A stretch of DNA of 64,000 bases from Fistulifera solaris (GCA_030295235.1 AP026129.1:434001-498000), one strand, 5' to 3'. Shown: positions 9,504 to 33,365, counted from the first letter of the stretch. The notes: generated by a model not told the origin, from the letters alone. Translations and numbers: made by a program.

Positions 9504-9733
9504 TACCTGGTACCAGGTACCGTACCAGTATCGCGCACCGTTGCGGAAAGTAAAAGTGAAGATGTTTTTTATTTATTAGATAAATTTTCTGTGATCTAGG
9601 GACTATAAAAATTATTGTGCCACTCCGACGTGTCATTGTTCATTGTGAGAAGAGCGTGCCCCGCTAAATCTATGAGCTAGGTATCACCGGTACCGGTACC
9701 GTACCGGTACAAGTACAAGTACCGGGTACGTAC
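9504..9733. repeat. GTAC/TACC(A/T)GGTA-rich tracts upstream of Rab1
   Basis: TACCTGGTACCAGGTACCGTACC (9504) and ACCGGTACCGGTACCGTACCGGTACAAGTACAAGTACCGGGTACGTAC (~9686-9733). Confidence 0.8.
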
Positions 9734-10560
9734 TTGCGATACATTGCCCAAATTCGCCACGACTGACTACCGCTTGAGCTACATTGATTGTTTAATCATG
9801 ACTTCATTAAAATCAACAATTACCTTTAGTTGTTTTTGTAGGACGCATCTCGATTCTTCATGATGTCGAAAAACCTTGGGGATCGCCTTGTTCTCCGTTA
9901 CCAGGTATTGCCCTTTGTGTAGGCGACCTTTTGTCACGACTGCATTTCAGTCATGGGTCATTATACGCTGGGCGTCGAGAGATTATATTGAACGTCAATG
10001 GCACGTTAATAATATAACTTTCCTTCCTCATCCTCATGATTTACCCCTCAACGTTTAAAAATATAGGGTGTCGAGCATGTCGGAATTCGTAAGAAGCTTT
10101 CAGCTATCTAATTGACAAGAGTGCAATTGACGTCGGTAACTAGGATCACAAACTGCCAACTGTTTGCAGGCTGCCCTTGGTAAACTTGTTGAATTCCAGT
10201 TGCTTATCTCTATAAGCTACTCTCGCATTATAATTCTCACTACCAACGTCGAAAACTTAATCACATCCGCTTGAGAACGGTCTGAGATTAGTGACCAAAT
10301 CCAGTTCCCTAATTCTGAAGTCGAATTCGCACTTTTTCGCCTATCACGGTCAATTATGAAGGAAAGTTTGCAGATCGCAGATGCCTTAAAAGCGAAAAGA
10401 TGCAAGGTAGGAGGAAGGTTCTTGGTCAGCTGCAAATTAGAAGCAAGCAAGCGAGGACTGGGAACGTCCAACATATAACTTAGTCCACGATCAAATGGTA
10501 TTAAAAACGGATTGTTAAATTATTAGCTACATTTGACCGTGGTACCAATAAATTTTTCGC

Positions 10561-14853: not shown

Positions 14854-15481
14854 TAGAAAATTGGTTATCTATGATCTTTATGCAGTTGCATCTTTGAGTC
14901 TGCTTCTTGTCAAACAAAAGGCAAAGTGTTTAGCCCATAATTATTTGGCTTTGGACCAATGCTTTGCTCTCCTTTTTGTTAGCGGTACGATAGCGTTGAC
15001 TTTAAAGGACTGGTGAAAGTGAAAGCGTCGCTAATATACTTCTTACATTGTCGGAATTCAGCAGGAAAACTTATACACCATACTTCAAACCGAACTGGTC
15101 ACAACTGAAGAGGCTTGCGATCTGGGTGATATGACATTCCCTAGAAAAGAATTATCGCCTGAGAATTGATTACTAGTGAAGAAGCAGCACCAGGGAGTCG
15201 AAGAGCCTGGATCGCTTAACTTGCATATGTTTCGTTATTCTCTAACGGAATTGTGAAGGGAATTTTTGAGGACCACTCTTCATTCCCAACCAGACCGCAA
15301 GACACTTGTAAAGCGGCGATATGTAACTTCTGGTGCTCAGTTATAACGTATTAGGTATAAAAGGAGAAAAAATGCAGTAATTGAAAAGGAAGTCTTCCCT
15401 GTTGTAAGCCTTGTGTGAGGGCGAACGAATGAGGCCCGGTAAACAGTAATGAGCCAAATTCTTTGCACTTGCCTTGAGCCT

Positions 15482-15561
15482 GGAAACGACGTTAAAATTC
15501 TGCCTCCAGTACACGATTCTACGTAGCGTCAACGACGACGCAGAATTTTAACGCCGTTTCC
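15482..15561 (-). repeat. ~80-bp palindromic dispersed element, copy 1 (inverted relative to copies 2 and 3)
   Basis: GGAAACGACGTTAAAATTCTGC...GCAGAATTTTAACGCCGTTTCC; its reverse complement aligns end to end with 28297-28376 and 33285-33365. Confidence 0.95.
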
Positions 15562-15940
15562 CGGTGCCCGCCCGTTGCCTTTACCTCTCTAGTACCGGTA
15601 CCAGGTACTACCTGGTATCGCCTTTCAAATGGTTATGGATTTTACTTGTCGAAGCGACACCGAGTTGCATGGATCATAACATTCTAAAACAATTTACCCA
15701 ATGTGGTCGGTGTGTTGATGGTAATTCGTAAGTGGAAACAACTTTCATTACTCACCTTAGGCCGTTCCTAACTTAAAGTTGGATAACCTTAAAGTTCGAT
15801 TTACCCCAGTGTGAGATTATGGGTTGTCGTCTACACAATTGATTATAGTCGTTAAGTGGTTTTCGATTATTATCTACAATCCATACTTTTTCGTGTCGTT
15901 CAACTAAGTAAAATCCCCCGAATTTCACAAGGCGATTTAG

Positions 15941-16012
15941 TACCAGGTAGAATTGCAGTACCGTACCTGGTACTGGTACCGGTACCAGGTACGTAGTAAC
16001 TACGTAGTAGTA
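15941..16012. repeat. GTAC/TACC(A/T)GGTA-rich tract
   Basis: TACCAGGTAG...GTACCGTACCTGGTACTGGTACCGGTACCAGGTACGTAG, about 140 bp upstream of the next CDS. Confidence 0.8.
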
Positions 16013-16145
16013 ACATGCACCAAGATCCAAGATGAGCAATAGTTTTTGTCAACTCACAATCATTCGACTTGTTAAGGAAGGCAAACCAAGATAAACCAGG
16101 ACGCTAAACAGCTGATTGCTTGGCGATGCATGCAAAATAGTTGAT

Positions 16146-19100
16146 ATGACTGCTAGTAATGCACCAGCAAGTGCTGCTGGAAGTTCGGCAACCTCTAAGA
16201 TGAATGACGTTGAAGCGCTTCACGAACCTGTCGAGACGCAAGAGTTGTCGGCAATTGAGACGGTTCACAATAAAACTAAATTGTCGGGTCAGGGTCCAGC
16301 AAATTTTCCGGATGAATTGCCCTCTTGCAATTGCGAAGCGCCTTCCTTTTCGTCTGCTTTGCAAATGAAAGACCCCGCCGCGAAGGAAACTACAACGACT
16401 CGTACTTGCCCACCAAAAAAATTTCAGCAAGTCGACGATACACTTGCAGATTCTCTCCCCGAGAATGATGAAATTATCTTAGCCGAAAACAAGCTTAAGA
16501 CGTTACCATCGAATGAGCATGAAAAGAATTCATCAACATATAAAGGACCGCCAATAGTTGATACAGGCAATCCACGCGACGGCACGACAAACAAGGAAGC
16601 GCACAATCACAGGCTCTCGGAAAATCGAGAAACTCCTGATACTCCTGTTTTACAAGAATCGCAGAATGTGTCGGTGGGAAATAGCCGGCCCGACACTGTT
16701 GTTGTCGGTGGCGGCGAAAATGTTACCGGCGATCCTTCGCAACAAAAGAATTTATCTGACCCAACAATGATGATACAGCAAAACACGTGCATATCCCAAC
16801 AAGTACCGGAAACAGGACATCAATTTATACCGGCAATAGATGCTGCATCAATACGTCGTCCCGCGATCGTTGAGGGGACACCCGTTCTTCCAGTTATAGG
16901 TATCCCAGTGGCAGACAACAGCGCTTTGGCTTCTACTGCAACTGAGAACGTCACACAGTCGCAACTGAACCTCATACACACTGTTGTTGCACCAGAGGGG
17001 GCAACTGTCGTGGGTATGGTAGGAACAACACCTATCGTCAGGCTTCCGGATGCTTCAAAAGACTCGTAACGAAAAAGAAAGGCAGATTTAAGGTTTTTCA
17101 ACCGGTCATAGATGTCGTGCCAGTTGATTCTACTTCGAGTTCGCCTAGCACGACCATACAGGCTCCTACGGAAATGGCTCTTGCGGATCCCAACATGCCG
17201 ACCGTAGGAGGACAAGAGACGACAGGCGGTGCCGATCCAGAACCTGCAATGTTAATCAACCAACCTCCACTCCCATCCAACAATCCGGATGAACCCCAAA
17301 CATTCGAAGGGACAGGAGCTCCTGTAGTGAAACGAAAAGGTCGTTTCTTCGTTACAAATCTGAAAGATCCTGCCGTGATTGCTATCAACATTCAGCCCCA
17401 AATGGTCAATGGCGTACCAATATCAAACGCACCAGCAACTCAAACAACGGTTGAATCTTATCAGTTAACCTCAACTTACGTTCAAACCAGTGCACCAAAT
17501 ATTGCTGTTGCACCCGGTGCTGCGGATTTGTATCAATCTGTTGCAACGGCGGCACCCTCAGTCAATAGTCAAACGGTCATGCTATCCACAGTTCCAGTAC
17601 TCCAGCAACATCATCCTCAGCCTCAACCTCCACAACCAGTTCAATACGATCACTCGGTAGTGTCACAGCATCATTCGGGGGTTCATGTTCAAGAAACTTT
17701 TCACTTAGACCGCAATACCCAACGTGCTACCGAGCCGCGACAGTCATCGATACAGCAGCCAAACGTGACATTGCCAGGCGGCGCGGAAGGAACGAATCTT
17801 CAAAGTGATGTTTGGCCAGCCGAATCTCAAGTCGCATCAGAGAAGGTAGATAGTCCAAGTGATCGACCAATAGAGCATTCTGAAGCGTCACAAAACCAGA
17901 AACCACTTGCTCGACGGTATCAGTCAGTGCCAAAAAGTGGGCGGGAAGAACACCTTGCGCCCACAGGCCTTGGAAAGGTTTTTCATTTTCTTGATCAAAT
18001 GCGAACTGAAGTGACGCAAGCGGACAAGCTGATCAAGACGCTACAGACCGAGAACCGTCTATTGGTAAGTTACGGAATTCGCTTATTGTGGATCGGAAAC
18101 CTACTGTAACTGAATTGATACGCCTACAGAAAGAGAGAAACAAGGAGCTGGAGGCAAAAGTTATAGACGGTGACAGGAAGTTTCGAGAGGAAAAGGCGTT
18201 TAGGGAGGCTACTGATGCAAAATTGAAGGCTCTTCGGAAGAAAGTGCGCTCCATGAAAGAAGGTTCCGAGATTCAGAAAGAAGACGATAGTACCTTAACG
18301 ACTGCCCAACAGTCAGAAAACGCAGAAGCTGACCAGAAGAAGGCATTGTCGGGAAGTATTCAACCAGGCTCTGGGCACGCCGCTGCCAACCAAAAAGCAA
18401 ATTTGCCGCTACATGATGGACCCAAGAAAAGTAACCATGCAGCACATTCCCTACCAGCTACTCCAGATACAAAGGTTAAATCAAACGCTACATCACCTGA
18501 ATTAATGATGTTGCAAGTCGCTTCCGATAAAGAGCTTCCCCCGACACCTCCTTTTTCAAGGAGAAAGGGCTCTTCATCGTCAAATGTTCCAGTACCAAAA
18601 CCTAGTCCCAGTCATAGTCGAGTGAAATCCACACCGCATCTCCCAACGCACTCAGGGTTTTTAAACAACGGTCTTCCAAATCAACTGACTCGGAATAGTG
18701 ATACGTCGTCAACATCCCATTACGCTCATGTCCCACAAAGCGCAGGCGTTACACAAAGGGAGCACAGGGCCCCACGACTTGCCTCGACAGAGTTTGATCC
18801 TCTTGCGCCGAAAAAAGCGTCTGCTGCCCAGGTCGACAGCTCACATATCAACTTTGACCCTTTTTCGTCTGTTGCTTCACCGAACCAACACATAAGTGCG
18901 GGATTGCAAAGCAGCAACGGCACTCCGACTCACGTCATTCAGCCGACGTCTCTTTTTACTATGAACCAAACCACTGTACCAATTCCTGTTCATAGTCAAA
19001 CTGGGACATCTTTCGAACTCTTTGATTACACGACAATTCAGAATCAGCCGAAGACACAGCAGGATTTGTTACAGCAAAGCAATTGTCAAGAATCGCATCA

Positions 19101-19383
19101 GCAAATTCTTCTTGTACCGCAGCAAACGCTCGAGGTTTTAACGGACAATCAGATGTATCCAAACGCTTTAACTATGGGAAGTGCGAGCAACGTGCTCATC
19201 GAGCAAAATGTCTTGAACGTTGCGACTTCCGGGATGTGGGGTCCGCAGCCAGAAGAAGTGACAGTGGCACACGTAGAGACACAGCCAAAGTCAGATTTCG
19301 CCCAGGCACTAGCGTCGCAGTCCAGACTCAGCTTGCCATTGGACCCATTTGATGACTTGTTGAGTCGAGTCAATCAATCATAA
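16146..19383 (+). CDS. Large low-complexity protein with a central coiled coil and two KGRFxV motifs
   Basis: ORFs 16116..17069, 17117..18109 and 18088..19383 join via an A-run indel (~17058) and an intron (gtaagt ~18065 to tacag ~18129). Coiled coil LDQMRTEVTQADKLIKTLQTENRLL|KERNKELEAK. Confidence 0.7.
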
Positions 19384-19521
19384 CTCGCAATTGGTGGAAG
19401 TCAAGTACATGGTCGTATTTATATTTTGCTTCATTAGAATATGTATTATATCCATATATAAGAACAATTTAAAGAACAAAACTTGCGAGCTTCGCCAACT
19501 GACTTTGATTCCTTCATCGCG

Positions 19522-20690
19522 TCACCTGTACTTGCTGCCTTCGTCTTTCCGTGCTAACAACTCGTCGGCCTCATCCAATGGTTGGCTTTGTAATAACTCG
19601 ACGACTCTACGCAGAACACTAACCAAGAGTATTGGAGCGCGAACCAAACCAACAATGAATGTCTCCAAAATACCCAGCGGTGAGTTTCGATCATTATCCA
19701 TAGGGCGTTTCTCCTCCAAAATTCGTTGAATACTTTTCAGGCGCAATCGTTCCGCATCACTGAGCTGCGCTAACGTTTCATAAGCCTTTTGCTCTGCTTC
19801 CCCCAATGGCCCTTTGTACTTGGCATCTTTTGGTCGAAGGAATACGCCTGGTGCATTCATACGCTTTTCGGCAGCTCTCTTTTGCTCCGCATCGAATAGC
19901 TCTAGTACTTTGGCTTCAAGTTCCCCCAGCGGCCCAGGAACATCCAAAGGACGAACAACTTCACCACCTCTCCGTCTGCTTTGACTCATTCGCAATAACT
20001 CAGCATCTCGAATTTCTTCAAAAATACGGACCGCTCTGTATTCGGCTTCGCCGAGAGGACCGCGCATCGATTCATCCAAATCCTTGGGTCGGATTGTCTT
20101 TGTACGAACACGCTCACTTTCAGACAACTTGATTCGATCGAGAAAGTCGCTCGCGGCACTCTCAAGAAAGCCCAGCGGCCCTAGTTCTGTCCCCGCATCT
20201 TTCGGCCTCACCAACTGCCCTCCTCCATTGACAATACGTTCGGCTCGCCTTCCTTCTTCTTCGACGACTTGCGACAACCATTCTACTGCGGATTTCTCCC
20301 ATCGACCCAAGGGGCCTAACGAACTCTCACTCGCATCCATCGGGCGAACATACATAGGATCCTCACCTCTCATGCGTGCAAGACTCTGTTCGAGCATACG
20401 CTCGGCTTCTTTGCTTTGAAGATGTCAGATCTCCATTTATAGTCTTGAAGACTGAGCTGAGCGAGGTTGCGTGCTAGCGATTGAAAGATTGTTGTCTCTT
20501 GTTGTTCTGTATCAGATGATGGTTCTGGGTTGGAATTACCGCCGTACAGCTCGCCTTTGGGTTCTCGCGGAGAAACTGCGCAGAGAGCAACATGCGCTCG
20601 ACCAGAAATGGTGTTTGTAAACGTAAAGCAATCGACGCCGGCGAGGAACATCAACGCCATCAGGCACAAAGAATGTCGCGCTTCTACCAT
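19522..20690 (-). CDS. Uncharacterised plastid-targeted repeat protein (6x RPxD..GPLG..E)
   Basis: Signal peptide ending VDC-F plus a transit-like segment; ORFs 20370..20690 and 19522..20397 join via an A-run indel at ~20410. Confidence 0.8.
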
Positions 20691-21443
20691 AGTCTACCCG
20701 AATTATATTGTGACGATAAGTTTTATCAAAAGAAAGCAAATGCTCGCAAGAGTTAAAATAGTAATAATGCAGACCTTTCTTACTGTTCATTCATTGCAAC
20801 GAAACAGCGATTGAGTTGAAACCGGTACAAGTAGTTGTTGGGAAACGCGTTGATGGAGTCACCGCGCACGAATACTTTGTAATCATTGCGTGTGTTTGGC
20901 TGTTGGTGCGACAAGTTCTGGTAACATCGCGTCATACCTCACACACGTCATCGCTCATCGCCGTACTTAACGCCAACCCCAATGCAGAAGCATAGACGGA
21001 GTGTTATGAGAGACGTGGCTTGACGTGGATGACGTACCCCTACTTTATTCCTTTCTGTGTCACAAGAAACATGTGACGTTGATCGATGATGGTTGATGCA
21101 GAGGGTTGATGGTTGATGGTCCGTTTGTGTGTTTGTGTGGTCCACTTTTGTCCGTCTTTCACCTCGTCTTTTCGTCATCGTTGGCGCCAAGGTCGGATAA
21201 AGCGTTCTAATCCGAACGAACTACAACGACATTCATTCCAAACTTCCCTCTAGGTTAGTTACAAAATTGAGTTATCGAGATACTGACACGGAAGGTTTCT
21301 CTTTTAGGACTAAGCTGGAGTAGTTAAGAAATCTGTTCTACGTAATATCATTCTTTCGAAGTCTATAATTTTTGCTAGGATTGTAAACAAAGTTGTTTAA
21401 TATTATGGAAAAAATATAGACAAGTAAACAGCATCAATCATCT

Positions 21444-21818
21444 TCACCACCCTTCTTCCATTAAAAACTCATCAAAGCTCAGTCCAGGGCTCTCTTCACG
21501 GAGGAAATCGGCAATGACGTACTTCATGTACTCCACTTTTCCAAAAGACAGTTGTCCCTCTAGCCCGCCCATCACAGGTAATTCAAAGCAACCTAACACT
21601 GGTAATAGTGAATGCTCGGTTTTATGGCTCATCTTTTTGATGGTGTCGATAGAGTGAATGAGGTCGAACTGGAGCTCTTCGGGAACAATGCTCTTGGTTA
21701 CACCGACAACCACTCTCGAGGTATTTGATGGAGTCACCAGAAATGAAGGTTCAGCCTCCAGTAACTGAAAGGATTCCTGTTTCACAGTCTTGGTATCTTG
21801 CTCTCCTTTCTTTGATAT

Positions 21819-21854
<36 letters not shown>

Positions 21855-22364
21855 TGCCGAGATGTATGATAGTGATGACGACGACGGCTCTGGTGATACC
21901 CACGGCATGGCATAAAAATCAGGTTCTTGGTCAGGATTGGACTTGCTGCGAACTCCTGTTCCTTTTATTTGGATACGAGTGATTTCCTTGACCAGGTAAG
22001 GTTTTCCTCGTAGAAAAAGCTCATGATAATAACAGCCTTTGTCTTGTCCTTGAGTCAATCGTAAAAAACCGTACATATTACACTGACGGAGAAAGCTCTT
22101 ATACTTGGTGATCTTAAATCGGCCGGCAAGGATCGCTTGTAGCTCTTTTGGCTTGTGAATGGCAAAGCATCGGCCATGTGGCTGCCAGGAGATAATATGG
22201 TCAATTTGGTCGTGATGGGCTTGTTCAAGAAGCGCAAAGAGGCGCATCGGAAACTTGTTGAAAGATTTGGCTTCGTTGGATGGCATGTCGTTGGCATGAT
22301 CGTGATAGTTGTGCTGCACAACGGTGTTTTCAGGTGGGTCGTTTTTGTTGGTCGGTCGGCACAT
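21444..22364 (-). CDS. Heat-shock-factor-type transcription factor
   Basis: FPMRLFALL...IISWQPHGRCFAIH...SFLRQCNMYGF...YYHELFLRGKP DNA-binding domain, with flanking VQHNYHDHA and EPDFY motifs typical of diatom HSFs. Confidence 0.92.
21819..21854. repeat. (GTC)n microsatellite encoding poly-Asp in the HSF gene
   Basis: About 12 tandem GTC units. Confidence 0.9.
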
Positions 22365-23239
22365 TTTTTCACAACACTTTGTCGGAAGAGGTGCGATGAG
22401 TCGATGACAGAAAGATGCGCTCGCGGAAGATAATGAGCAATCCAGTTAACGGAATGAAGTCGTCGAAAGGATTCTGATCAAAAAGAATCTGGTGGTCGCA
22501 GAAAAAAATAAGCAATCCGATCCAATGGATACGATTTTAAGTTCTTGTTTGATATTGTATGTTACTTCTTGCCAAAGGTCGGAAGTTTGGCCGAGCCCAG
22601 GCAAAAAATAATGCAACAGTCACCTCACACACGGTTACATGTCCGTGATGTACTTTATATGATATTGGAAACAATTCTTACCATTACGACAAAAAAGCAC
22701 TAATTAAACGTAAGCCCCTATGTCACAAAGTACACTCCAGTACCGGACACGGCAAAATGATTGGTGCGTCGACGATCGACGACTGACATTACTTTAACAG
22801 GGCTTGACAAAAAAATTTACAGTGACAATTTATTGATAATTTCTACATAAGCAATTAGTACCGCATAGAAGTCAAAAATTCCCGAGACCCGCGAGCACTT
22901 TTACTTTAGAAAGCCCAGTAAAACTGAAATTTCAGTCATGGATGCAACGAAAGTGACATCACCATTTTTCTTCCTCTCGCTTTGAACTTTCGCAACGAGC
23001 GTTTTGCACGTGCACAGAAATTTCGGCGGAAAAACACGGAAAAGATTTTGAGTGGCATGAGAACTCGTGAGTGAACCGATGAGTGAAGTACGGAAGGACG
23101 GATCTTTTGTGTGTGCATTCGATCTTTCTGGAATTTCTTTTCATCGACGACCTTCTACAATCGTGGGGGGTGGTCGGGGGTCGGGGTAGCGTACTTGAAT
23201 TGCTTGCTTCGGTCGTTTCTAGCACATTGAACACCACTC

Positions 23240-25359
23240 ATGTCGTCGATGTCCTTGCGGAAGCGTCGCGACGCTTCTTCCGAAATTACCAGTGAAGATT
23301 CTCGAGAGGATGACGATGCATTTGACGACGCAGTTGAGAATGACGACAAGAAATCATCGTTCTATTTTTCATCTGCTGTACGCCACATGGCATGGTGGAG
23401 AATCGCGTTTTTTCTTATCATGTGGATGGAATGGAATTCCGATAGTGTCTTGACACCGTTCGGGTCTCTCGATATCACAACAGATGTCAAAATGCAAAAA
23501 TCAGGACATGATGCCTGGTTTCGATACGAGCACTTGACTTGGGTGCAGACTCTTCATAAACTCTTATCAACAACTTCAATCGGTCCCTATCTGAAGCCAA
23601 CAGGGCACGTGTGCTGCTTCATTGCAGCATTCGGCAAAGACTTGCCGCTCCTTTCGAACACGATATGGAAAGTTGCAACGTTGTCGTTTGTGATTCTGTA
23701 TAGCATTCGGTTCTGGGCAAAGGCCACAAATTTTACCAATCACAACTATTTATTCCCTTTGCTCATGTTCTGGACGCTCCTATCCGGAGGAGGAAACTTA
23801 TCCGGGCAGGTATTATATCAGGGCAAGACCAGCACGCTTCGAGATGATGGTGCATGTCAAATTGCCATCATTGCCCTCCGCTTCCAATTTGCCATTTTGT
23901 ACGGATACGCGAGTTTATGGAAAATAGTACACGAAGATTGGTGGGCGGGACGAATTGTAGAAGGTATCTTTGTGTCATTCGAAGAGAATGGCAGTTCGCG
24001 GGGTATTCCTTGGAAGCGTTTGTCGCATGAGTATCCCCATCTCTTCGTCATGGTTGCGTTCTCTGGCCTATTGCTGGATTTCAGCATGTTCATTGTGTTG
24101 GCCTTTACAAAACCGAGTCGCGCTACGCGAAACTGGTTCTTGGCCTTTACCTTGGCATTCCATCTCTTCACTACTGTTGCCATGTCGAATGTCATCGGAT
24201 ACTCTTTTCCATCGACTTGCATAGCGGGATTGATTCTATTCTTGCCTCTCACTCAGGCGAAAGAAGGCCCTGACTCTTTGGGACATGCCGACGCTGCGTT
24301 GGGGCGATGGTTGATGTTTTATGCTCAAGAGATATTGAGTAAATCGAGCCGTGATCGGTCACGTTCATTGTTGATCTTTTTTCTTTCTGTTTTGCGCCTG
24401 GCAATTCTTCATGCCTTTGCGCATGCTAGTCGTATCGCAAGGGAATTATCCTTACAATCGTTTGGGGTACCGCTACAGTTGGACCATGATGTTGCACAGT
24501 CTAGAGTACGGAATCGTACGGCACGAATTTGGTCAACCATCGACCCTGCTTTTGTTGAGCTATTTTGTACCCACGTGTTTTACACCGAATCGCAGCGACA
24601 TATTTATGCCACGGAGTCTATACTTTGGTCCTGGCTCAGAGCATCCTATGCAGGATTCTCGCAGCGTGCCAATGTATCAAATTCTGAGTAAGCGAGAGTC
24701 GGCAATGCTTGATGTTTTTCCATCACATCTTATCGCTCCAGTTGGAGCTGGTGTTGCTAGAGTTATCGATCAATCCGTCGGTCCGAATGCGTGTGCGGCA
24801 AGTCTTGCAAGTTATAATTTGCCTGCATCACAACTTCGGCTGGGAATGCACGGCACTTTTTCGGAAGACTGAATCAGAATGGCCCATACTGCCGTCTGGT
24901 AGATCCAACAGTGGACCTCGTCTCGGTCATGGAACAGCAAGCGAAATTGTCATACTTTGAAGTCTTGTGGAATGCAGTTTGGGACCGGCGTCCGACAGAA
25001 TACATGCTGGAAGGTATTGGTAGTATGAGAGAAAGGTCATTCTATCATCAAAATAAACTAGAAGAAGATGGCTGGAAGAATGTGCGCATCTTGGCTGATC
25101 GGGCTGCCTGCCTCTCCGCACGACCCATATGGTTTCGACCCATGAAAGAGACTACACGATCAAAGTGCTTGAACTGCCTCAGAATACCGTAGTCGGGTTA
25201 CTCGTCGAAAGGTCCATGAACATTTTGTTAAAGTATGGTGATTCACAACAAATCCGAGATGTGATGGAGTTCGAAATTTTAATGCCAGTGAAAGATCAAG
25301 AACCAGCTTGCTCGCAATCTGTTGCTGAAGATACGCTGATTGCCATAATGTGGAAATAA
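23240..25359 (+). CDS. Vitamin K-dependent gamma-glutamyl carboxylase-like (HTTM + VKG_Carbox) membrane protein
   Basis: NHNYL, YGYASLWK..EDWWAG, FHL, GYRYSWTMMLHS and RLVDPTVDL resemble GGCX motifs. Four ORFs join by homopolymer indels at ~24380, ~24858 and ~25145. Confidence 0.75.
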
Positions 25360-25456
25360 AAGGTAGTTGACGACTTTCGTTATCTATGACCGAGTACGAG
25401 ATTGTAGACTGTGCCAATTTAGACCGATTAATTACCAGGTCAGGAATCTATACGTA

Positions 25457-25716
25457 AAAGATAGTCCTCTCTGATTATCGCAAGCTGTTGCTCTTGGAAA
25501 ATTTGCTGACTTAATCGAATTCGGATCTCGACGTGTCTCTGATTATCGCAAGCTGGTGCCCTTAGAAAATTTTGCTGACTTCACCATATTCGGATCTCGC
25601 TGTGTCGAAAAAATATGTGTATGTGAAAGATAGTCCTCTCTGATTATCGCAAACTGGTGCTCTTGGAAAATTTTGTTGATTTCACCATATTCGGATCTCG
25701 CCGTGTCGAAAAAGTA
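25457..25716. repeat. Three diverged tandem copies (~70-90 bp) of the 5-phosphatase C-terminal coding end and stop
   Basis: Unit CTCTGATTATCGCAA.CTG.TGC.CTT.GAAAATTT.G.TGA.TT.A.C.ATTCGGATCTCG..GTGTC starts at ~25469, ~25537 and ~25638. Confidence 0.9.
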
Positions 25717-27972
25717 TGAGATGCGCCAAGATTGGAGTCCCCTCCCATTCGTCTCTTAGTTTGGGGTGCATCCATTCTTCCCGACATCCGTGCTGATTCT
25801 GCAGGGCTCGAATTTGACGGACGCTGAATGGTCGAAGCAGAACCCGATGTACCAAGTATAGCTTTAGCTGTGCTTTCTGTCAACCACCATGCATCTAAGG
25901 TAAGCCGGATTCGCCCATTCTCCAAACCGTTCTTGAAGATTGGAGCGTCTACGGTGATTGTCTTGACTGGGTCTTGTTCGTGTAAAGGCTGATTATCTGT
26001 TTTGCGTGAATCTGCTGTGAACTGTTGACTTGACTCGTCGCGACGAAACAGATTCATAATGCTTCCCCGGCGTGATGTTCTTCTCTCAGATGCGTTTGCT
26101 TGATTTTGTCGCAACTCACCAGGTGGTCGGAAATCTTTCAAAAGTACGCCCAGATTGTAAGAAAACGACCCCAACACATTATCAGAAGCACTAGGAACAA
26201 GTTTTGAATTTTTGCAGTCCATGACGGTGAAAAGACCAAAGCTCCGGTCATATCAAGCGGGCGCCCATCATTGTAAAATGTTTTGACTTCGGTATGAAAT
26301 ACTTCTCCTTCCCACAAAGGCTGAGCGGTCTGTTTCTGGACTGGCGAATGGGGCCAACCCTGGGGCGTTCTCTCCACAGGGCCTCCCCACTCGTCACTCA
26401 TGATGGAACTGTAATTGGAGAAGCAAGGAAAAATTTTCCTTTTGAGACGTTCCAGTCGACTCGTCGACGATTTGATAGCTTCTTCTGGTATGGAAACCAT
26501 AGAAATGTAGGGATTCGGTAATGAATTCCCCACTGCACCCATATTCACTGTCACATCCGACACAAATAAATATAGACGCTCCCTATGAATAGAAGAGTGA
26601 GCCAGCGGATTGTGATTCATGTGAAGGAAATCACCGGCCATTTGCATCGCAGATCGACGCCTCGCCATTTTCGGCCGCGCGGTCGCTGCCGCCTCATTCA
26701 GTTTTATAGCGAACGCAGCTCGTATAGGTTTGTGGTCGGAAGACTTGAAATCATCTACCGGCTCATACAATAAAGGTCGGACACTATTTTCCAAAAGGTG
26801 ATTCGATTTCCACAGAATTCGGTCTGTGTATGACGGTCGTCGCTTTTCGATGTAGCTGTATCCCGGTGACCGTTCGACTTTAAAAGTTGGCGGGAAGTTG
26901 CAGAATAGAGTTTTGAATCCAACCAAACAGTCTTTGACCCGCAAAGCTTTTTGCAGCTCATCCGCTTGGTTGAGCGTATTCCAGTCTCTTTCTTCTACTA
27001 AAGCTCGGAGCTTCTGTCGATGCTCGGCTTCATGGTGACCGTGGGCGTAGGCAGGTAGCTCGGTTCGGAAATTCAAGTCGCCCATGACGAAGCAATGGTG
27101 AGAGGTTAAGCTTGCATCGTGAAGCGTAGAACTCGGTTTCGCACCGCCCAATATATCACTGAGGGACGAACATCGCATCTGGTATTTGGCAGCCCCTTCA
27201 TGAGCTTCCAGATGTGCTGTTAGGAAACTGAGACGCGTTCTTTTATTAACGATCAATTCAGCAATGATCCCTCCCTTGTTGGCCAAGCCGGCTCTTCCCG
27301 TGTTTTGCGCTTTTGTGTACATAACGTCCACCTCAATGTCACGCTTCTGATGGTAAACAAAAATCTCCAATCGCATTTGTCCCCGTTGATAGGAAACAAT
27401 CCGTTCATAGGAAGGCAGTCGTTTCGTCATCATTTCATGCAATACGAATGTCCCTAGATCCCAGTTCGAGTCTACTACCGCAGCAATCATGGCGGATTCG
27501 CCCGTTTGTCCCGATTCCTTTCCCTGCACGTCTGCCAGATTCGGTCGGCCTGTTTCTCCCATTCGGTCAACGACACTTCTTCGGACCATGGATGATTTGA
27601 TGTGATCTCGACTTGCCGTGTAGGAAGATAAGTCATTCACTGCTTTCGCGATTCCCTTTTACCTTTGCGGGGTTTTCGTTTGGATTGCGTTCCGCTTTCC
27701 GTCGAAGCAGCGTCTTTGTCGTTGAGATCTTCTTCCGTCGGCGGATCGAATGTTGCTTCTTGCATACCAACGACAATGAGATCGAACTTGTCCTCATCTA
27801 CAAAATCTTCAAACGTGCTGAATTGATCTCGCACGGGATACTTTGCTGGATACTGCAACACTTGGTTGCACTGACCGTCCTCAGGCAACCAGAGAGCCAT
27901 GCTTTCTTCGTCGGGCTGGGCATTTCCGAGGTTCGCTGAGCAGACTAAGATTTGCAATTGCCCGTTCTTCAT
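25644..27972 (-). CDS. Inositol polyphosphate 5-phosphatase
   Basis: SANLGN, VGMQE, NKGG, AHLEAH, MGDLNFR, FPPTFK, PSYTDRILW, SDHKPI. Indels at ~27658 and ~26233. Confidence 0.92.
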
Positions 27973-28296
27973 CGCTCCGGATGGTTCGCCGATACTTATA
28001 GCTAACGAACGACTATGAACCGGATTTAATTGGCGCTCTTTAGATGTATGATGGGTAAGACAATTGCCAGCTGCCTCGAAAGCAAAATAATGATGATGAG
28101 ACACGACGCTCTGCGTGCCTTTTTCGTCCTCCCTTCAGCGTCCGCGCCTCGGCGGTCCGCGGCGTTGGCATTTTGCTTTGCCGTGACTTGGACGTGGGGC
28201 ATTGTCTGACGTCACCGCTACACTTAACGGAACACAAGTCGTTGCGGGGTCATTTGTGGTCATCAAATGACCAGGAACGTGTCCCCCTCCGAACCA

Positions 28297-28376
28297 GGGA
28301 ACGGCGTTAAAATTCTGCCTCGTCGTAGACGATACGTAGAATCTTTTACTGGGAGGCAGAATTTTAACGTCCCTCC
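28297..28376 (+). repeat. ~80-bp palindromic dispersed element, copy 2
   Basis: GGGAACGGCGTTAAAATTCTGCCTC-31 nt-GAGGCAGAATTTTAACGTCCCTCC, with a perfect 17-bp inverted repeat. Confidence 0.95.
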
Positions 28377-28640
28377 AAATCATCATTACTGGTATTATTT
28401 GTGTAGGCTTGAGAAGAGCAGGCTGTCGCAACGTGTACTACACACTCGCGGTTTTCGGAGTAGGGGGTAGACCACAATGACGGCAGATGAGGGATGAGGA
28501 TAAAGCATATGGGTATACTACGGATCAGCTTTTCAAGTGATCATCATTATTTGCTGCAAACGACGCGATGCGCGTTAGCGCGTTTTACTTTTCTTCATTT
28601 TCGAATAGGTTGCAACCTTGAAAGCTTTTGCCTTTTAAAG

Positions 28641-30110
28641 ATGATGATGTTTCATTTAAATAAAAGAATATTGCTATTGCTGCTGTACCAAGTGGTCTAT
28701 TCCCATGCCGGTTTTCGGTGGGGGTGGCTCAGGTTTAAACGACAGACTCATTCCGAACCCACACGACCAACGAATCGTGACAGTTCCCCGAATGATGCTT
28801 TGTTTCTTCACCAGCAATCATGTCCTTCTCTACTGGAAGATCCATCACACAATTCAGTAGGACGAAGCTCCTATGATGCGACGGCCGTAGCAAAGACTGC
28901 GGTGCAATGGAGTTTGATTATCTTTTTGGCCCGATCGATCTGGCAAGCTTTCAAAGATGTCGCGGAAGAAATTGCATCCATGGATAATTCCGAAGAAGAT
29001 TCAAAGCTACTAAATTTCCCCCTTAACAGAGTTGCTGGAAGCAAGGAAACATCATTGATTCATCGAATCGCATGGAAGTTGAGCCAATGTGGTATTCCTC
29101 TTCAATCTTCAACCGAACGTTCGGTAGAGTCGATTTTGCAAAAACTGACCAAGAATGAAGCGGCATTGCTAGACCAGTGCTTGTATATCCCATCAGCGCA
29201 CCCCAAAATAGCTGGCTTCAACGAAATACAAGAAGAACTTCAATCCATTCTGAATCAGTATCTTCATCAAGGTAATTCAAACCAGCATCCCTACTCGAGA
29301 CTATTTGAAGATGACAAGAGTCATCACGTCTTATTATACGGCCCGCCAGGCATGGGAAAGTCGCTTCTCATTAAAAGATTGACCACTCAAATACCAACGG
29401 TTTTGCTGACACCCAGTGTCTTGCTACGAAAGTGGGTCGGTGAAACGAATATGCGAGTTCGAACGCTCTTCACAGCATTGCAAAAACTAGCCCCCGTCAT
29501 GCTGTGTCTAGACGAAGTGGACGGCTTGTTCCGGGAACGCCAGATTCAAGAGCACGAGGTATCGAGGGATTTAAAGACGGAGTTTCTGCAGTGGTGGGAC
29601 GGTTTGTTATCGGGTGAGAAAATATGGATTGTAGCAGCGACGAACCGACCATTTGAAGTAGACTCGGCAGTCTTGCGCCGTTTGCCTCGTCAGTTTTATA
29701 TTGATCAACCAAATCTTGCAGCACGAAAAAAAATGTTACGCAACTTGTTAGAGGGATTGCCGCACGACATTGATGTCGAACACGTCGCCTTTCACACCGA
29801 TGGCTTCTCGGCTAGTGACTTACGGCGGCTTTTACAATTAGCTGCAAAAGGATGCAAAGAACTTGATACCTATGTTGAAATGACGACAGGTCATGTATTG
29901 GGGGCGTTAGACTTCGTGCAACCTACTCCTCAGACTCCAGCGTATCGAGCTGCCTTGAAGAAATATCTTTCTCCACAGGGACAGCAAGCTCGATCACCAT
30001 ACATTGAACACTATCAAATTGAACTTGAACTTGAGTCTGACTCTGACGCTGATAAGAACGGAGCAGATGAGGAGTGTCTCAGTGACGATGACGCAGATGA
30101 TGACCCTTGA
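28641..30110 (+). CDS. AAA+ ATPase, Msp1/ATAD1-spastin-like
   Basis: Walker A GPPGMGKS, pore loop KWVGE, Walker B LDEVD, KTEFLQWWDG, ATNRP, AVLRRLPR; N-terminal hydrophobic segments. Confidence 0.88.
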   Translation: MMMFHLNKRILLLLLYQVVYSHAGFRWGWLRFKRQTHSEPTRPTNRDSSPNDALFLHQQSCPSLLEDPSHNSVGRSSYDATAVAKTAVQWSLIIFLARSIWQAFKDVAEEIASMDNSEEDSKLLNFPLNRVAGSKETSLIHRIAWKLSQCGIPLQSSTERSVESILQKLTKNEAALLDQCLYIPSAHPKIAGFNEIQEELQSILNQYLHQGNSNQHPYSRLFEDDKSHHVLLYGPPGMGKSLLIKRLTTQIPTVLLTPSVLLRKWVGETNMRVRTLFTALQKLAPVMLCLDEVDGLFRERQIQEHEVSRDLKTEFLQWWDGLLSGEKIWIVAATNRPFEVDSAVLRRLPRQFYIDQPNLAARKKMLRNLLEGLPHDIDVEHVAFHTDGFSASDLRRLLQLAAKGCKELDTYVEMTTGHVLGALDFVQPTPQTPAYRAALKKYLSPQGQQARSPYIEHYQIELELESDSDADKNGADEECLSDDDADDDP

Positions 30111-30752
30111 GACATACCTAAACTTAGAAAACGTTTTTGGAGGTATTCTTGATAGTCTCAAGCAACGCATTTGCTTGGCTTGACATTTTGGACCATGGTT
30201 TGAAGTTGTTTCGCCACAAGGTCTCTTCTTTTGTGGGTCTACCAGGTACTCTCTACTCCGTAGCTAATTGCTGTCGATCTCTATCCCTAACACTCGTGAA
30301 TGATGGTTCCAAAGAAACGTTCGCGACGACAAATCACACCTCAAGAAACAGTTTGGGAAGACGAAAAGAACATAGAACATAGCACTATCTTTAGTACTCA
30401 TTTCTATTTCTGTTTTTAACCACGTTCATTAAAGAGCTATACAAAATTCTCTTTTGGCTTCCAAAGAAGTCGCCGTGACCCGTGATCGTGACCCGTGACA
30501 ACATTCATAATTTATAGTAAACGAGGAAGGAAGGAGCACAAAGCACTAAAAAAATCAAACGGGACATTTTGAAATTGCGACCTGTTCTGGCTTCTGACCT
30601 CCAGCAGCAAATTCAGACCGCACCAGCTCCGCAGCAAGAACTTGCACAAGCAACACGCCGTGTTCTCAACTGATTGATGATTTCTCGACTTGTTGTTATT
30701 CGTAAAACGATTTCTCCGTGTTATTATTGTTACAATCAATTAATCATTCACA

Positions 30753-32386
30753 ATGTTTGACAGTCTCGATGACATCAAGCTGATCCTTGAAGAGGACATG
30801 GGCAGTGAAGGAAATCTAAATTTCGACCCCATGGATGATTTGGATTTCCTCAACGATGACTTGTTCACCGACCCTGCACCTAAACTTGCGCCCAGCTCAG
30901 TCTCTACACCCTCTTTTGGGTCTCCGAGTTATACCATGACCAGTAAGAATCCGGAGTCGACGGCGAACGCAACGTTCGATTTCAAATCCACACCTTCAAA
31001 TGCGAATACAACCTTTAGCTTTAATAATGATGCACGATTGCCGAAGAGTGGGCTCGGGGGTTATCTCGACAACGTCAGCTGAACTCGCAATCGTTAGTAC
31101 AGCGGTCGGTGTCTACTTCCTCTATGCGCAATCATCGATCCCTAGCTGGCAATAACTTATCATCATCTTCGAATGCGACGTTTGAAACGAAAAGTAGCAA
31201 CCCGGTTGCGTCGTTTTTGCAGCGGCAGAACCAGCTTAAAGAACAACGGGGGAACGCTTCCATGGCAAAATCCTATTCTATGAATTCTGTACGTAAGAGG
31301 AACTTTGGTACGATTGACGAGCACAAGCCGAATGCCACGTTCGACGACCATGAACCTTTGATGTCGAGAAATTCAATCGCCTCATTTTTGAAGGCTAAGC
31401 AAAGCGCCCCGGCGCTAGGGCGTTCTATTTCTACGTCGCTTATGAAGCCAAATCATCAGGTACTACAGCAATCGGATCATACGTCGCATACTCTCAATGC
31501 AATCCTTTCCACGCATAACTTAAAGAAGGCTAGGATGGGGTCGACGGAAATGAATGGTGGGGGGAACGCTCACTTTGATTTCGACATGGGCTCCCGCTCT
31601 TCGGCAAATCCCTTCATGAAGACCTTAAGTCAAAGCAATAGTCAAGCACTCTCTTCATCAAAGTCAGCTAACCAGTTTATGCAACAGATGGGTCGGCTTC
31701 AGACAAAATCCATGAAAAGCGCTTTCGTTTTCGAGCGCGACAACAAGGAACCTCCGAACCAGAGAGGAGAAGAAATAGAAGGACCCATGGATGAAGCTTT
31801 GCTACACAGTTCGTGTAAACTGTATCATGACAATCTAGCTGTTGTCGAAAGCGCCTTGGGACTGGATCCATCTGCGGTGAGACGCTCAATCCCTACACTT
31901 TGCAGCCGTCAGTCCAATTCACTATGGAAGCGATCAGGAAAGGAAGGTAAATATTGCTATCCTCTTAATATTGCTTTATACTTTCAAGCGCCTCTCGATA
32001 TTATTCGATTGCTGGCTAACGCTGGATCAGATGTGTTGGGATTCAACGACGGTCCTGATGGTGCTGGAAGTTTAGGCATTGCTATATCTTGTCACAATGC
32101 CTCCTGGCCCGTTGTTCAATTACTGTTGAGCGTGAACCCCACGACCGCATCAATTGTTGATAGACTGGGAAATTTCCCTCTGCATCGTATCTTACAATCA
32201 ATGCCAACCGAGCAGACAGTTACTGCGATCTACGAGGCATACCCGGAGGCTTTGACAAAGCGGAACTTCCACGGGAAGACGCCTTTGGATTTAGCTGTCC
32301 ACAACGTTACTTGCCCAGAAGCTGTTGTCAACGCTCTTCAAAGAAGGTCCTATTCGCGGATGGAACGCAATGCTCAACATATGTGA
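30753..32386 (+). CDS. Protein with C-terminal ankyrin-like repeats
   Basis: GNFPLH, GKTPLDLA and YPLNIAL motifs; the two ORFs join via a G-run indel at ~31057. Confidence 0.65.
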
Positions 32387-33284
32387 AAAATTTATGCGAC
32401 GTCAAGGGATTGAATTCAAGAAAGTATTTTTGTCTAAAAATTGGGCTGTATCTGTTCGGGTTTAAAAACACCATTTTGTCAGCGGAATAATGGCATGAGC
32501 TCAAGTGGTAGCTCATGTTCATGGTAGGCTGCTGCGAGATCTTGGAGTGTCGTGCTGGTGGTCGCTGGCCTATCAATCGGTTCATAACTAGGCGATAGCC
32601 TTCTCGTACTCTCGAGCCTGCCTTTACTGAGACGATTCATGCGTAGCCAAGGATCGCATAAGCCGGTAAAATGAGTTGATAAGCTATGAAGTGTTTCCTA
32701 TCTACATGTTCGCTTAGTTCAAGATAGCAGTCCTCTAACAATGCATTTAGTTGGCGGTGAAAACTAGACTAGAGCTAATAGATAACAATTTCACATCTAA
32801 TAACTATGCGTAATGTTTGACTATTAGCCATGGATAATGGATAAATGTCTCAAGACAATACGATTTTGGTCAATTTATGTATTGGCGTTGACAAAACGTA
32901 TGTTCTTATCCCAAGTCCTTTAAGTCATGTTGGTGATGAGAGAGTGGAGCAACTACTGCTGCCAGGTACTGGCCGCGTTTGCCCTGGGTCATGTTGATCG
33001 TCTGTTCCCAAAGTTCCTAATAGCAATACCTCCACCCTCCACATCGAAAGTTCTTCATTGAAAATGGAGCCTAGCTGGGCGCAGTTTTTCATTGACAAGA
33101 ATAGCTAAGAAATGACACGGCTACATAATTCTAGAGAGAATGCGTTGGACGGTTTCCGGGACTGGATATTGATTGAGTCGTGAGTGGTTTGCATACGAAC
33201 TACGGTGGTAGTAATCTCATTGAGTCGCATCGAGTCTCTCAGGTCACAGGCCTGAAAAATCATGGGCCACCTACCAGAGCCTTT

Positions 33285-33365
33285 GGGAACGGCGTTAAAA
33301 TTCTGCCTCGTCGTAGACGCTACGTAAAATCCTGTACTGGGAGGCAGAATTTTAACGTCCTTCCC
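33285..33365 (+). repeat. ~80-bp palindromic dispersed element, copy 3
   Basis: GGGAACGGCGTTAAAATTCTGCCTC-31 nt-GAGGCAGAATTTTAACGTCCTTCCC. Confidence 0.95.

Follow-up and report, generated by a model that had tools for sequence, protein, structure and literature searches.

The genome of the diatom Fistulifera solaris carries a large family of short palindromic elements, three copies of which lie in the 64,000-nucleotide stretch analysed here (the window; AP026129.1:434001-498000 of GCA_030295235.1, C10:434001-498000 in our contig numbering). The element is a 79-bp MITE (miniature inverted-repeat transposable element) and shows every feature of that class for which we looked: it is short and non-coding with 24-bp terminal inverted repeats, it is dispersed at a uniform length, it is flanked by a target-site duplication, and its partner sites on a collinear contig are empty. 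We consider it probable, at roughly 80%, that its movement depended on enzymes supplied in trans by PHIS-type (DDE_Tnp_4) cut-and-paste transposons, a diatom lineage with the same ends. An earlier note on this DNA had offered three options: a small non-autonomous mobile element, a hairpin RNA or a dimeric protein-binding element. The first is the one favoured: the family has many copies and a duplicated target, the partner sites are empty, and the ends are held in common with a transposase-bearing element.

The three near-identical palindromic copies are confirmed in the window, the first in inverted orientation, and over 80 nt the second and third share 94% identity. A single mismatch in copy 1 is the only flaw in the 17-bp arm across the three copies, the mini-hairpin CGTAG-acg-CTACG is perfect in copy 3 only, and the flanks of the three copies are mutually unrelated, all as first described. 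The element is real, but its extent of ~80 bp is better cut to 79 bp, or 78 bp for copy 1; the G and C at its outer edges, previously counted as element, may belong to the target. Two 24-bp ends enclose a 31-bp spacer with no gene, and family similarity stops sharply at the 79-bp unit. In keeping with the earlier note, which saw no transposase in the window, none of the genome's 24 DDE_Tnp_4 matches falls inside it. The features are as follows, where A and B are two subfamilies, C9 is a contig collinear with the window and L097 is a transposase locus on contig C7.

15480..15482, + strand: flanking triplet CTG of copy 1, one transition from a perfect duplication with its partner CCG
15483..15560, - strand: MITE copy 1, subfamily A, 78 bp, spacer one base short
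15561..15563, + strand: flanking triplet CCG of copy 1, partner of the CTG at 15480..15482
28298..28376, + strand: MITE copy 2, 79 bp, subfamily A; CAG on the left, a degraded AAA on the right; matching C9 site without a copy
28560..28580, no strand: approximate empty site, where contig C9 has a subfamily-B copy and the window has none
33286..33364, + strand: MITE copy 3, subfamily A, 79 bp; triplets degraded (TTG/CGT); matching C9 site without a copy
33286..33309, + strand: 24-bp terminal inverted repeat on the left of copy 3; bases 1 to 16 are identical to the end of L097's broken long element
33310..33340, + strand: spacer of copy 3 (31 bp), with most of the subfamily-diagnostic bases and no compensatory changes
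33312-33324: 5-bp mini-palindrome in the spacer of copy 3
33341..33364, - strand: terminal inverted repeat on the right of copy 3; over the inner 14 bases it matches the sixfold subterminal repeat of L097 at 13/14

Three copies in so short a stretch had suggested a large genome-wide family, and the genome bears this out. In a pattern search of the 51.7-Mb assembly (62 contigs), the 11-bp cores of the two arms were matched exactly and together at 250 or more places (control 0). Exact patterns for single ends found the right end 129 times and the left end 67 times (control 0 for each), and all three counts are lower bounds. A DNA similarity search returned 411 candidates, and the 40 that were scored are all 95-100% identical. 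The two-arm pattern was also searched in viral contigs and in prokaryote genomes, with 0 and 0 matches. We collected 147 rows with flanks and dropped three (one copy present in both orientations and two duplicate loci), leaving 144 copies, a non-random sample that was taken from top matches and exact patterns and is biased to well-kept copies. Between anchored ends, 131 of the 144 measure exactly 79 bp. The intergenic bias noted in the window holds: on loci of at least 3 kb, 7 of 74 copies lie within an open frame of 150 codons, as compared with 60% of window positions, an avoidance of long open frames that is expected of surviving insertions. Nested, head-to-tail and inverted double copies also occur (L011, L332, L134, L135, L136, L171), some of them inserted at CTG within the spacer of another copy, and at L158 the flanks are exact inverted repeats over 15 bases, with the MITE at the centre of a larger palindrome.

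No consistent target-site duplication had been visible at first, which holds for the three window copies (CTG/CCG on the + strand, CAG/AAA and TTG/CGT) but not for the family. The same three bases stand on both sides in 50 of 144 copies, against 14.2±3.3 with shuffled flanks, and in 67 of 144, against 25.3±4.2, if the end is allowed to shift by one base. The 50 perfect triplets are CTG (19), CAG (13), CCG (9), CGG (6) and others (3). Where CNG is found on both sides (59 copies), the middle base agrees in 47, against 16.6±3.3 expected. The rebuilt target is weakly palindromic, TAC-CNG-GTA, and the duplication is 3 or 1 bp long. Intergenic GTACC-rich palindromic tracts that resemble this preferred target occur in the window at 9504-9528, 15584-15609 and 15967-15995, and many copies elsewhere in the genome sit within such tracts. 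Two copies, L198 and L013, have duplications of 10 bp and not of 3 (10/10 and 9/10 matching), both of which cover a pair of CNG sites that lie 7 bases from each other.

Gene order and sequence on contig C9 run parallel to the window (the two are collinear), for the most part at ~84-92% identity. It is without copies 2 and 3 and one further C10 copy, and C10 is without two C9 copies, such that all five alignable partner sites (5/5) are empty. For copy 1 no alignment of the C9 partner site was obtained; at the partner position of that gap C9 has an unrelated repeat-rich stretch (L108:8600-9500). The copies fall into subfamilies A and B, which are distinguished by 7 of the 79 positions; when the five inner positions are used for typing, 104 copies belong to A and 40 to B. 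The two types sort by contig for 142 of 144 copies, and 24 of the 26 contigs with at least two copies hold one type only, the exceptions being single A copies on C1 and C23; here the two consensuses were drawn from contig sets noticed beforehand, and pairing of contigs was shown directly for C9 and C10 only. F. solaris has been described as an allopolyploid with two subgenomes (PMC5935921). The sorting accords with the MITE having spread separately in each parent of an allodiploid, and the two versions of the MITE appear to label the two parental chromosome sets.

The earlier note had proposed a search for a long element with the same termini and a transposase, and one was found, but broken. 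Among the 20 DDE_Tnp_4 loci first examined, L097 has a MITE-like long-element end and the other 19 have none. Its end equals the first 16 bases of the MITE (16/16), and the exact 16-mer occurs nowhere else. Inward from this end follow six tandem palindromic subterminal repeats, a helper gene, a broken DDE_Tnp_4 gene (E 3.5e-11), a B-type MITE and further frames. The subterminal repeats match the inner arm of the MITE at 13 of 14 bases, where the background is one match per 1.15 million bases. Gene-poor relatives share end and target: L126 (2.42 kb, 235-bp inverted ends, 20/22 end match, flanks CTG/CTG), L141 (CAG/CAG) and L147 (CGG/CGG), and L334 is a 271-bp form with a MITE-type end and degraded flanks. 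Gene-less families of 1.25-1.3 kb with the MITE terminal motif were seen at L141, L145/L320 and L147, and truncated ends at L149 and L333 run into telomere-like repeats.

A whole sister element, L100, spans 5.57 kb between CAG/CAG and has an open transposase of 302 amino acids, 58% identical to that of L097. The two group at 100/98 support in a transposase tree, which has long branches and no named references and is relied on for this pairing only. The conserved residues D138, K162, D194, D216 and E253 are invariant in the transposase, which places its DDE core, with the motif D-K-D-D-P-R-E and PF13359 over the cut-off, within PHIS; the motif spacings are near those given in PMC4122938, with a slightly shorter P-to-R gap. 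A search of the PDB by sequence with the transposase profile gave 0 matches. One transposase of this genome is 100% identical to a protein recorded from F. solaris, and the other named relatives come from diatoms. In metagenomes, a scan with a single transposase gave 25 candidates, none confirmed, and an alignment-based search gave 260 relatives, of which 80 were kept. No convincing MITE-type end was found in these 80 loci, only matches with three mismatches. Where both ends could be paired, L290 and L305 show CAG/CAG, and L232 and L247 show no matching triplet.

The helper gene adjoins the transposase in 29 of the 80 metagenomic loci, and in 19 of the 28 that are at least 3 kb long. Its family comprises 2,368 representatives at E 0.001, with no Myb among the Pfam families listed (25 of 52) for 116 members. 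The predicted helper structure (pLDDT 93.7) has three small helical modules; their resemblance to FF, homeodomain and SANT/Myb chains (Z 4.5-6.1) lies below the trustworthy level. Foldseek gave no match to the model at E 0.001 or better, and an atlas search by features with the helper gave no usable match. DNA binding by the helper is plausible.

Several observations weigh against an origin of the MITE from this lineage by insertion and target duplication. The L097 transposase is interrupted by stops and a frame break, the second end of L097 was not found in C7:108000-133390, the ends of L100 match the MITE end at only 8 of 16 bases, and no intact element with MITE-type ends was found. The partner clade is thus identified, but a live master for the MITE was not found: L097 is broken and L100 has different ends. 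The metagenomic locus L261 has CAG/CTG and an imperfect repeat. The bias of the sample towards well-kept copies counts here also, as does the absence of a perfect triplet from 94 of 144 copies, including all three in the window. The empty sites are too diverged to give the exact pre-insertion sequence, and no excision joint skipping a copy appears in the contigs of four sequencing runs, data that are unable to show absence. Finally, the 12 middle-base mismatches among 59 copies exceed what spacer divergence predicts (p 6e-4), and therefore some end-damaging process is needed, candidates being adjacent rearrangement, conversion or assembly error. Four stretches of contig C8, a guessed partner of L097, have no similarity to it. 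At L326 (C7:66955, minus strand) an unpaired long-element end is nearly identical to the MITE end and is preceded by CCG; the 1.5 kb of interior seen has no transposase or helper, and an intact master is possible further in.

The same MITE and the same partner clade could also be read as an 81-bp element (G...C) that duplicates only the central base of a preferred C-N-G. At CNG sites the filled sequence is identical, and so 79 bp with a 3-bp duplication and 81 bp with a 1-bp duplication are indistinguishable there. Copies with a matching middle base depart at the outer triplet position 13 times and at the inner position three times (p 0.02), which speaks for one base, although an indel artefact accounts for one or more of those 13 outer departures (L191). 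Likewise, of 54 exact A-type ends, 45 keep G at -1 while 34 keep C at -3 (p 0.03), and under the 81-bp cut G starts all related ends seen; against this, G at -1 is less conserved (0.78) than are element positions (0.89-0.97). After the diatom clusters, the transposase's nearest structural neighbours include THAP/HTH-type clusters, which are built like ISL2EU, and the ISL2EU branch has duplications of 2 bp and 0 bp (PMC4122938), whereas most PHIS groups are reported to make 3-bp duplications (PMC4482050). Three perfect triplets that are not CNG (CAT, ATG, TGG) could be explained under a 1-bp duplication only by coincidence, and give a rough likelihood ratio of ~6 in favour of 3 bp. On balance we favour the 3-bp duplication over the 1-bp one by about three to one, and regard the 81-bp element as a serious but clearly less probable alternative.

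It is improbable that another enzyme moves the MITE, for instance the canonical TWA-type Harbingers of the same genome, with the common ends being coincidental or only ancestral. In its favour, no intact master with matching ends was found, and canonical Harbingers with long open frames are present, but the ends of these Harbingers agree with the MITE at 3-7 of 16 bases, they duplicate TCA, TAA or TTA, and none of the 19 other transposase loci first examined has a MITE-like end. Complete canonical elements of this type, with those duplications, were seen at L089, L090 and L096, and a five-copy 3.9-kb family that has subterminal inverted repeats at L091, L093, L094, L099 and L103. Large inverted duplications were seen at L322:2866-7674 and L093:670-9991, one old (~71-75% identical) and one recent (1.5 kb, 99%).

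A host regulatory element, a dimeric protein site put upstream of genes by selection, is very unlikely as the reason for the family. The intergenic bias would suit it, and each chromosome set independently gained a copy in the same short gap near 28300-28570; in a genome so gene-dense, however, most gaps are near a start codon, and the target duplications point to insertion. What makes it unlikely as the family's origin is that 0 of 5 alignable homoeologous sites are common to both chromosome sets. Single copies may have been co-opted later as regulatory elements.

Least likely of all is a hairpin RNA or small-RNA precursor family kept by selection on structure, since none of 109 changed pairs is compensated (0/56 in the arms, 0/53 in the mini-stem); the window has 0 Rfam matches, the mini-stem varies about as much as the loop (4.3% versus 3.6% per site in subfamily A), and copy positions are not conserved. 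All six strands do fold better than 200/200 shuffles (z -4.9 to -7.1, computed as single-stranded DNA), but such folding follows from the inverted ends, and the lower variation of the arms is partly due to how copies were picked. Copies with other flanks are found in contigs of runs X2-X4, which we guess to be RNA; these contigs show at most that some copies lie within transcribed DNA, and the low cover of the three window copies in them is not readable as silence.

The MITE was also compared with known transposon groups. Like Tourist-like MITEs of PIF/Harbinger, such as mPing (PMC2836001), it is short and gene-less, has inverted ends and a high copy number, lies near genes, shares its ends with a DDE_Tnp_4 element and probably makes a 3-bp duplication. 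The target of Tourists is TWA and that of the Fistulifera MITE is C-N-G, with no TWA among the 50 perfect triplets; it works as a Tourist-type MITE does but is not one of canonical PIF/Harbinger. Typical Tourists are longer than 79 bp, and the Fistulifera MITE is very small. The partner transposase and a TWA-type Harbinger of the same genome are 19% identical (hhalign probability 22.6).

The target resembles that of NuwaI, the PHIS group of Harbinger3_DR (PMC4482050), in being palindromic around a largely CWG centre with the core ACCWGGT, and the target reported for Harbinger3_DR, AAACACCWGGTCTTT, has the same core as that of the Fistulifera MITE (PMC3016246). NuwaI also shares a DDE_Tnp_4 transposase, a separate helical helper gene and G-rich ends. 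The duplication of NuwaI is CWG; the perfect triplets of the MITE are CWG in 32 of 50, CSG (CCG and CGG) in 15 and other in 3, and those of the long elements are CAG, CTG or CGG. The NuwaI helper has Myb/SANT, for which the diatom helper gave no match among the Pfam families listed; the Fistulifera long elements carry one or two further genes; and NuwaI ends usually begin GGG, where those seen here, under the 3-bp cut, begin GGA, GAA, GGC or CAA. All 23 families listed for NuwaI are from animals (PMC4482050), and Nuwa has been grouped with canonical Harbingers (PMC12730594). The partner-clade profile missed 14 of 22 DDE loci of its own genome, including the three TWA-type ones tested. Indirect signs, obtained by comparison without named Nuwa sequences, suggest that the transposase lies outside the Nuwa clade. 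We do not file the MITE under NuwaI, because the NuwaI families listed are all from animals and have a Myb/SANT helper, and Nuwa is grouped with canonical Harbingers, while the partner clade is distant from a TWA-type Harbinger of its own genome and has ISL2EU-like structural neighbours.

A third comparison is with ISL2EU/Spy and the bacterial IS5 family (ISL2-like; PMC4122938): DDE_Tnp_4 + HTH_Tnp_4 (+THAP) clusters are among the nearest predicted structures after the diatom ones (TM 0.74-0.78). Of the transposase members, 33 of 55 match NCBIfam IS5_4 at E up to 0.1 (best 3.9e-7). The seven frames searched in L100 gave no THAP or YqaJ match, and the targets in ISL2EU/Spy are AT or AAATTT, with a 2-bp AT duplication in ISL2EU, whereas the MITE targets CNG. 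It is possible, and we offer it only tentatively, that the elements form an unnamed diatom PHIS group nearer ISL2EU/Spy than Nuwa, one that reached a Harbinger3-like palindromic CNG target independently, with a new three-module helper, extra genes and a one-base duplication. No such family is described in the available text of a report on ANT and TNA Harbingers in a brown alga (PMC12477816) or in that of a MITE and PIF-Harbinger search in another diatom (PMC7466962). Our search of the literature for a published description of the MITE, which did not extend to Repbase or Dfam, to the bulk of subscription papers or to supplements 2-3 of PMC4482050, found none. The family is real and, as far as this search goes, apparently unrecorded; it is of a known kind, and its mechanism class is clear.

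By analogy with Harbinger-type elements, the transposase and the helical helper would bind the AAA(A/T)TCTGC motif in each arm; the MITE would then be cut out and joined at a staggered cut, and repair would duplicate the target. The MITE may derive from a member of the L097/L126 family through internal deletion. It would be older than the split of the parental species and would have spread separately in each parent, with probably little movement since hybridisation, the sole master found with matching ends being decayed.

Two further kinds of repeat were seen in the window: direct repeats of 59-82 bases at a spacing of 68-101 lie near a gene end at 25446-25718, and a second dispersed short palindromic motif of ~24-28 bases occurs at 9933, 44069, 51393 and 54251.

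As a class the MITE is ordinary; what it adds is a marker for the subgenomes and a means of reading out an unusual PHIS lineage of diatoms. The subgenomes of F. solaris have been split by GC and codon use, and progenitor-specific transposon relics were named in the same report as an alternative method that needed better assemblies (PMC5935921). The MITE family could serve as such a progenitor-specific marker, with its two exceptions pointing to exchanges or late jumps. From its insertion sites, which number in the hundreds, one can read the target preference of a diatom transposase lineage of which no description was found in the literature searched. The MITE also defines a very short cis-unit that a gene-transfer tool for diatoms might use. 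If the elements do form a new PHIS group with a 1-bp duplication, they would add a 1-bp step to the PHIS series of 0, 2 and 3 bp, and ~80 bp would be a natural minimal substrate.

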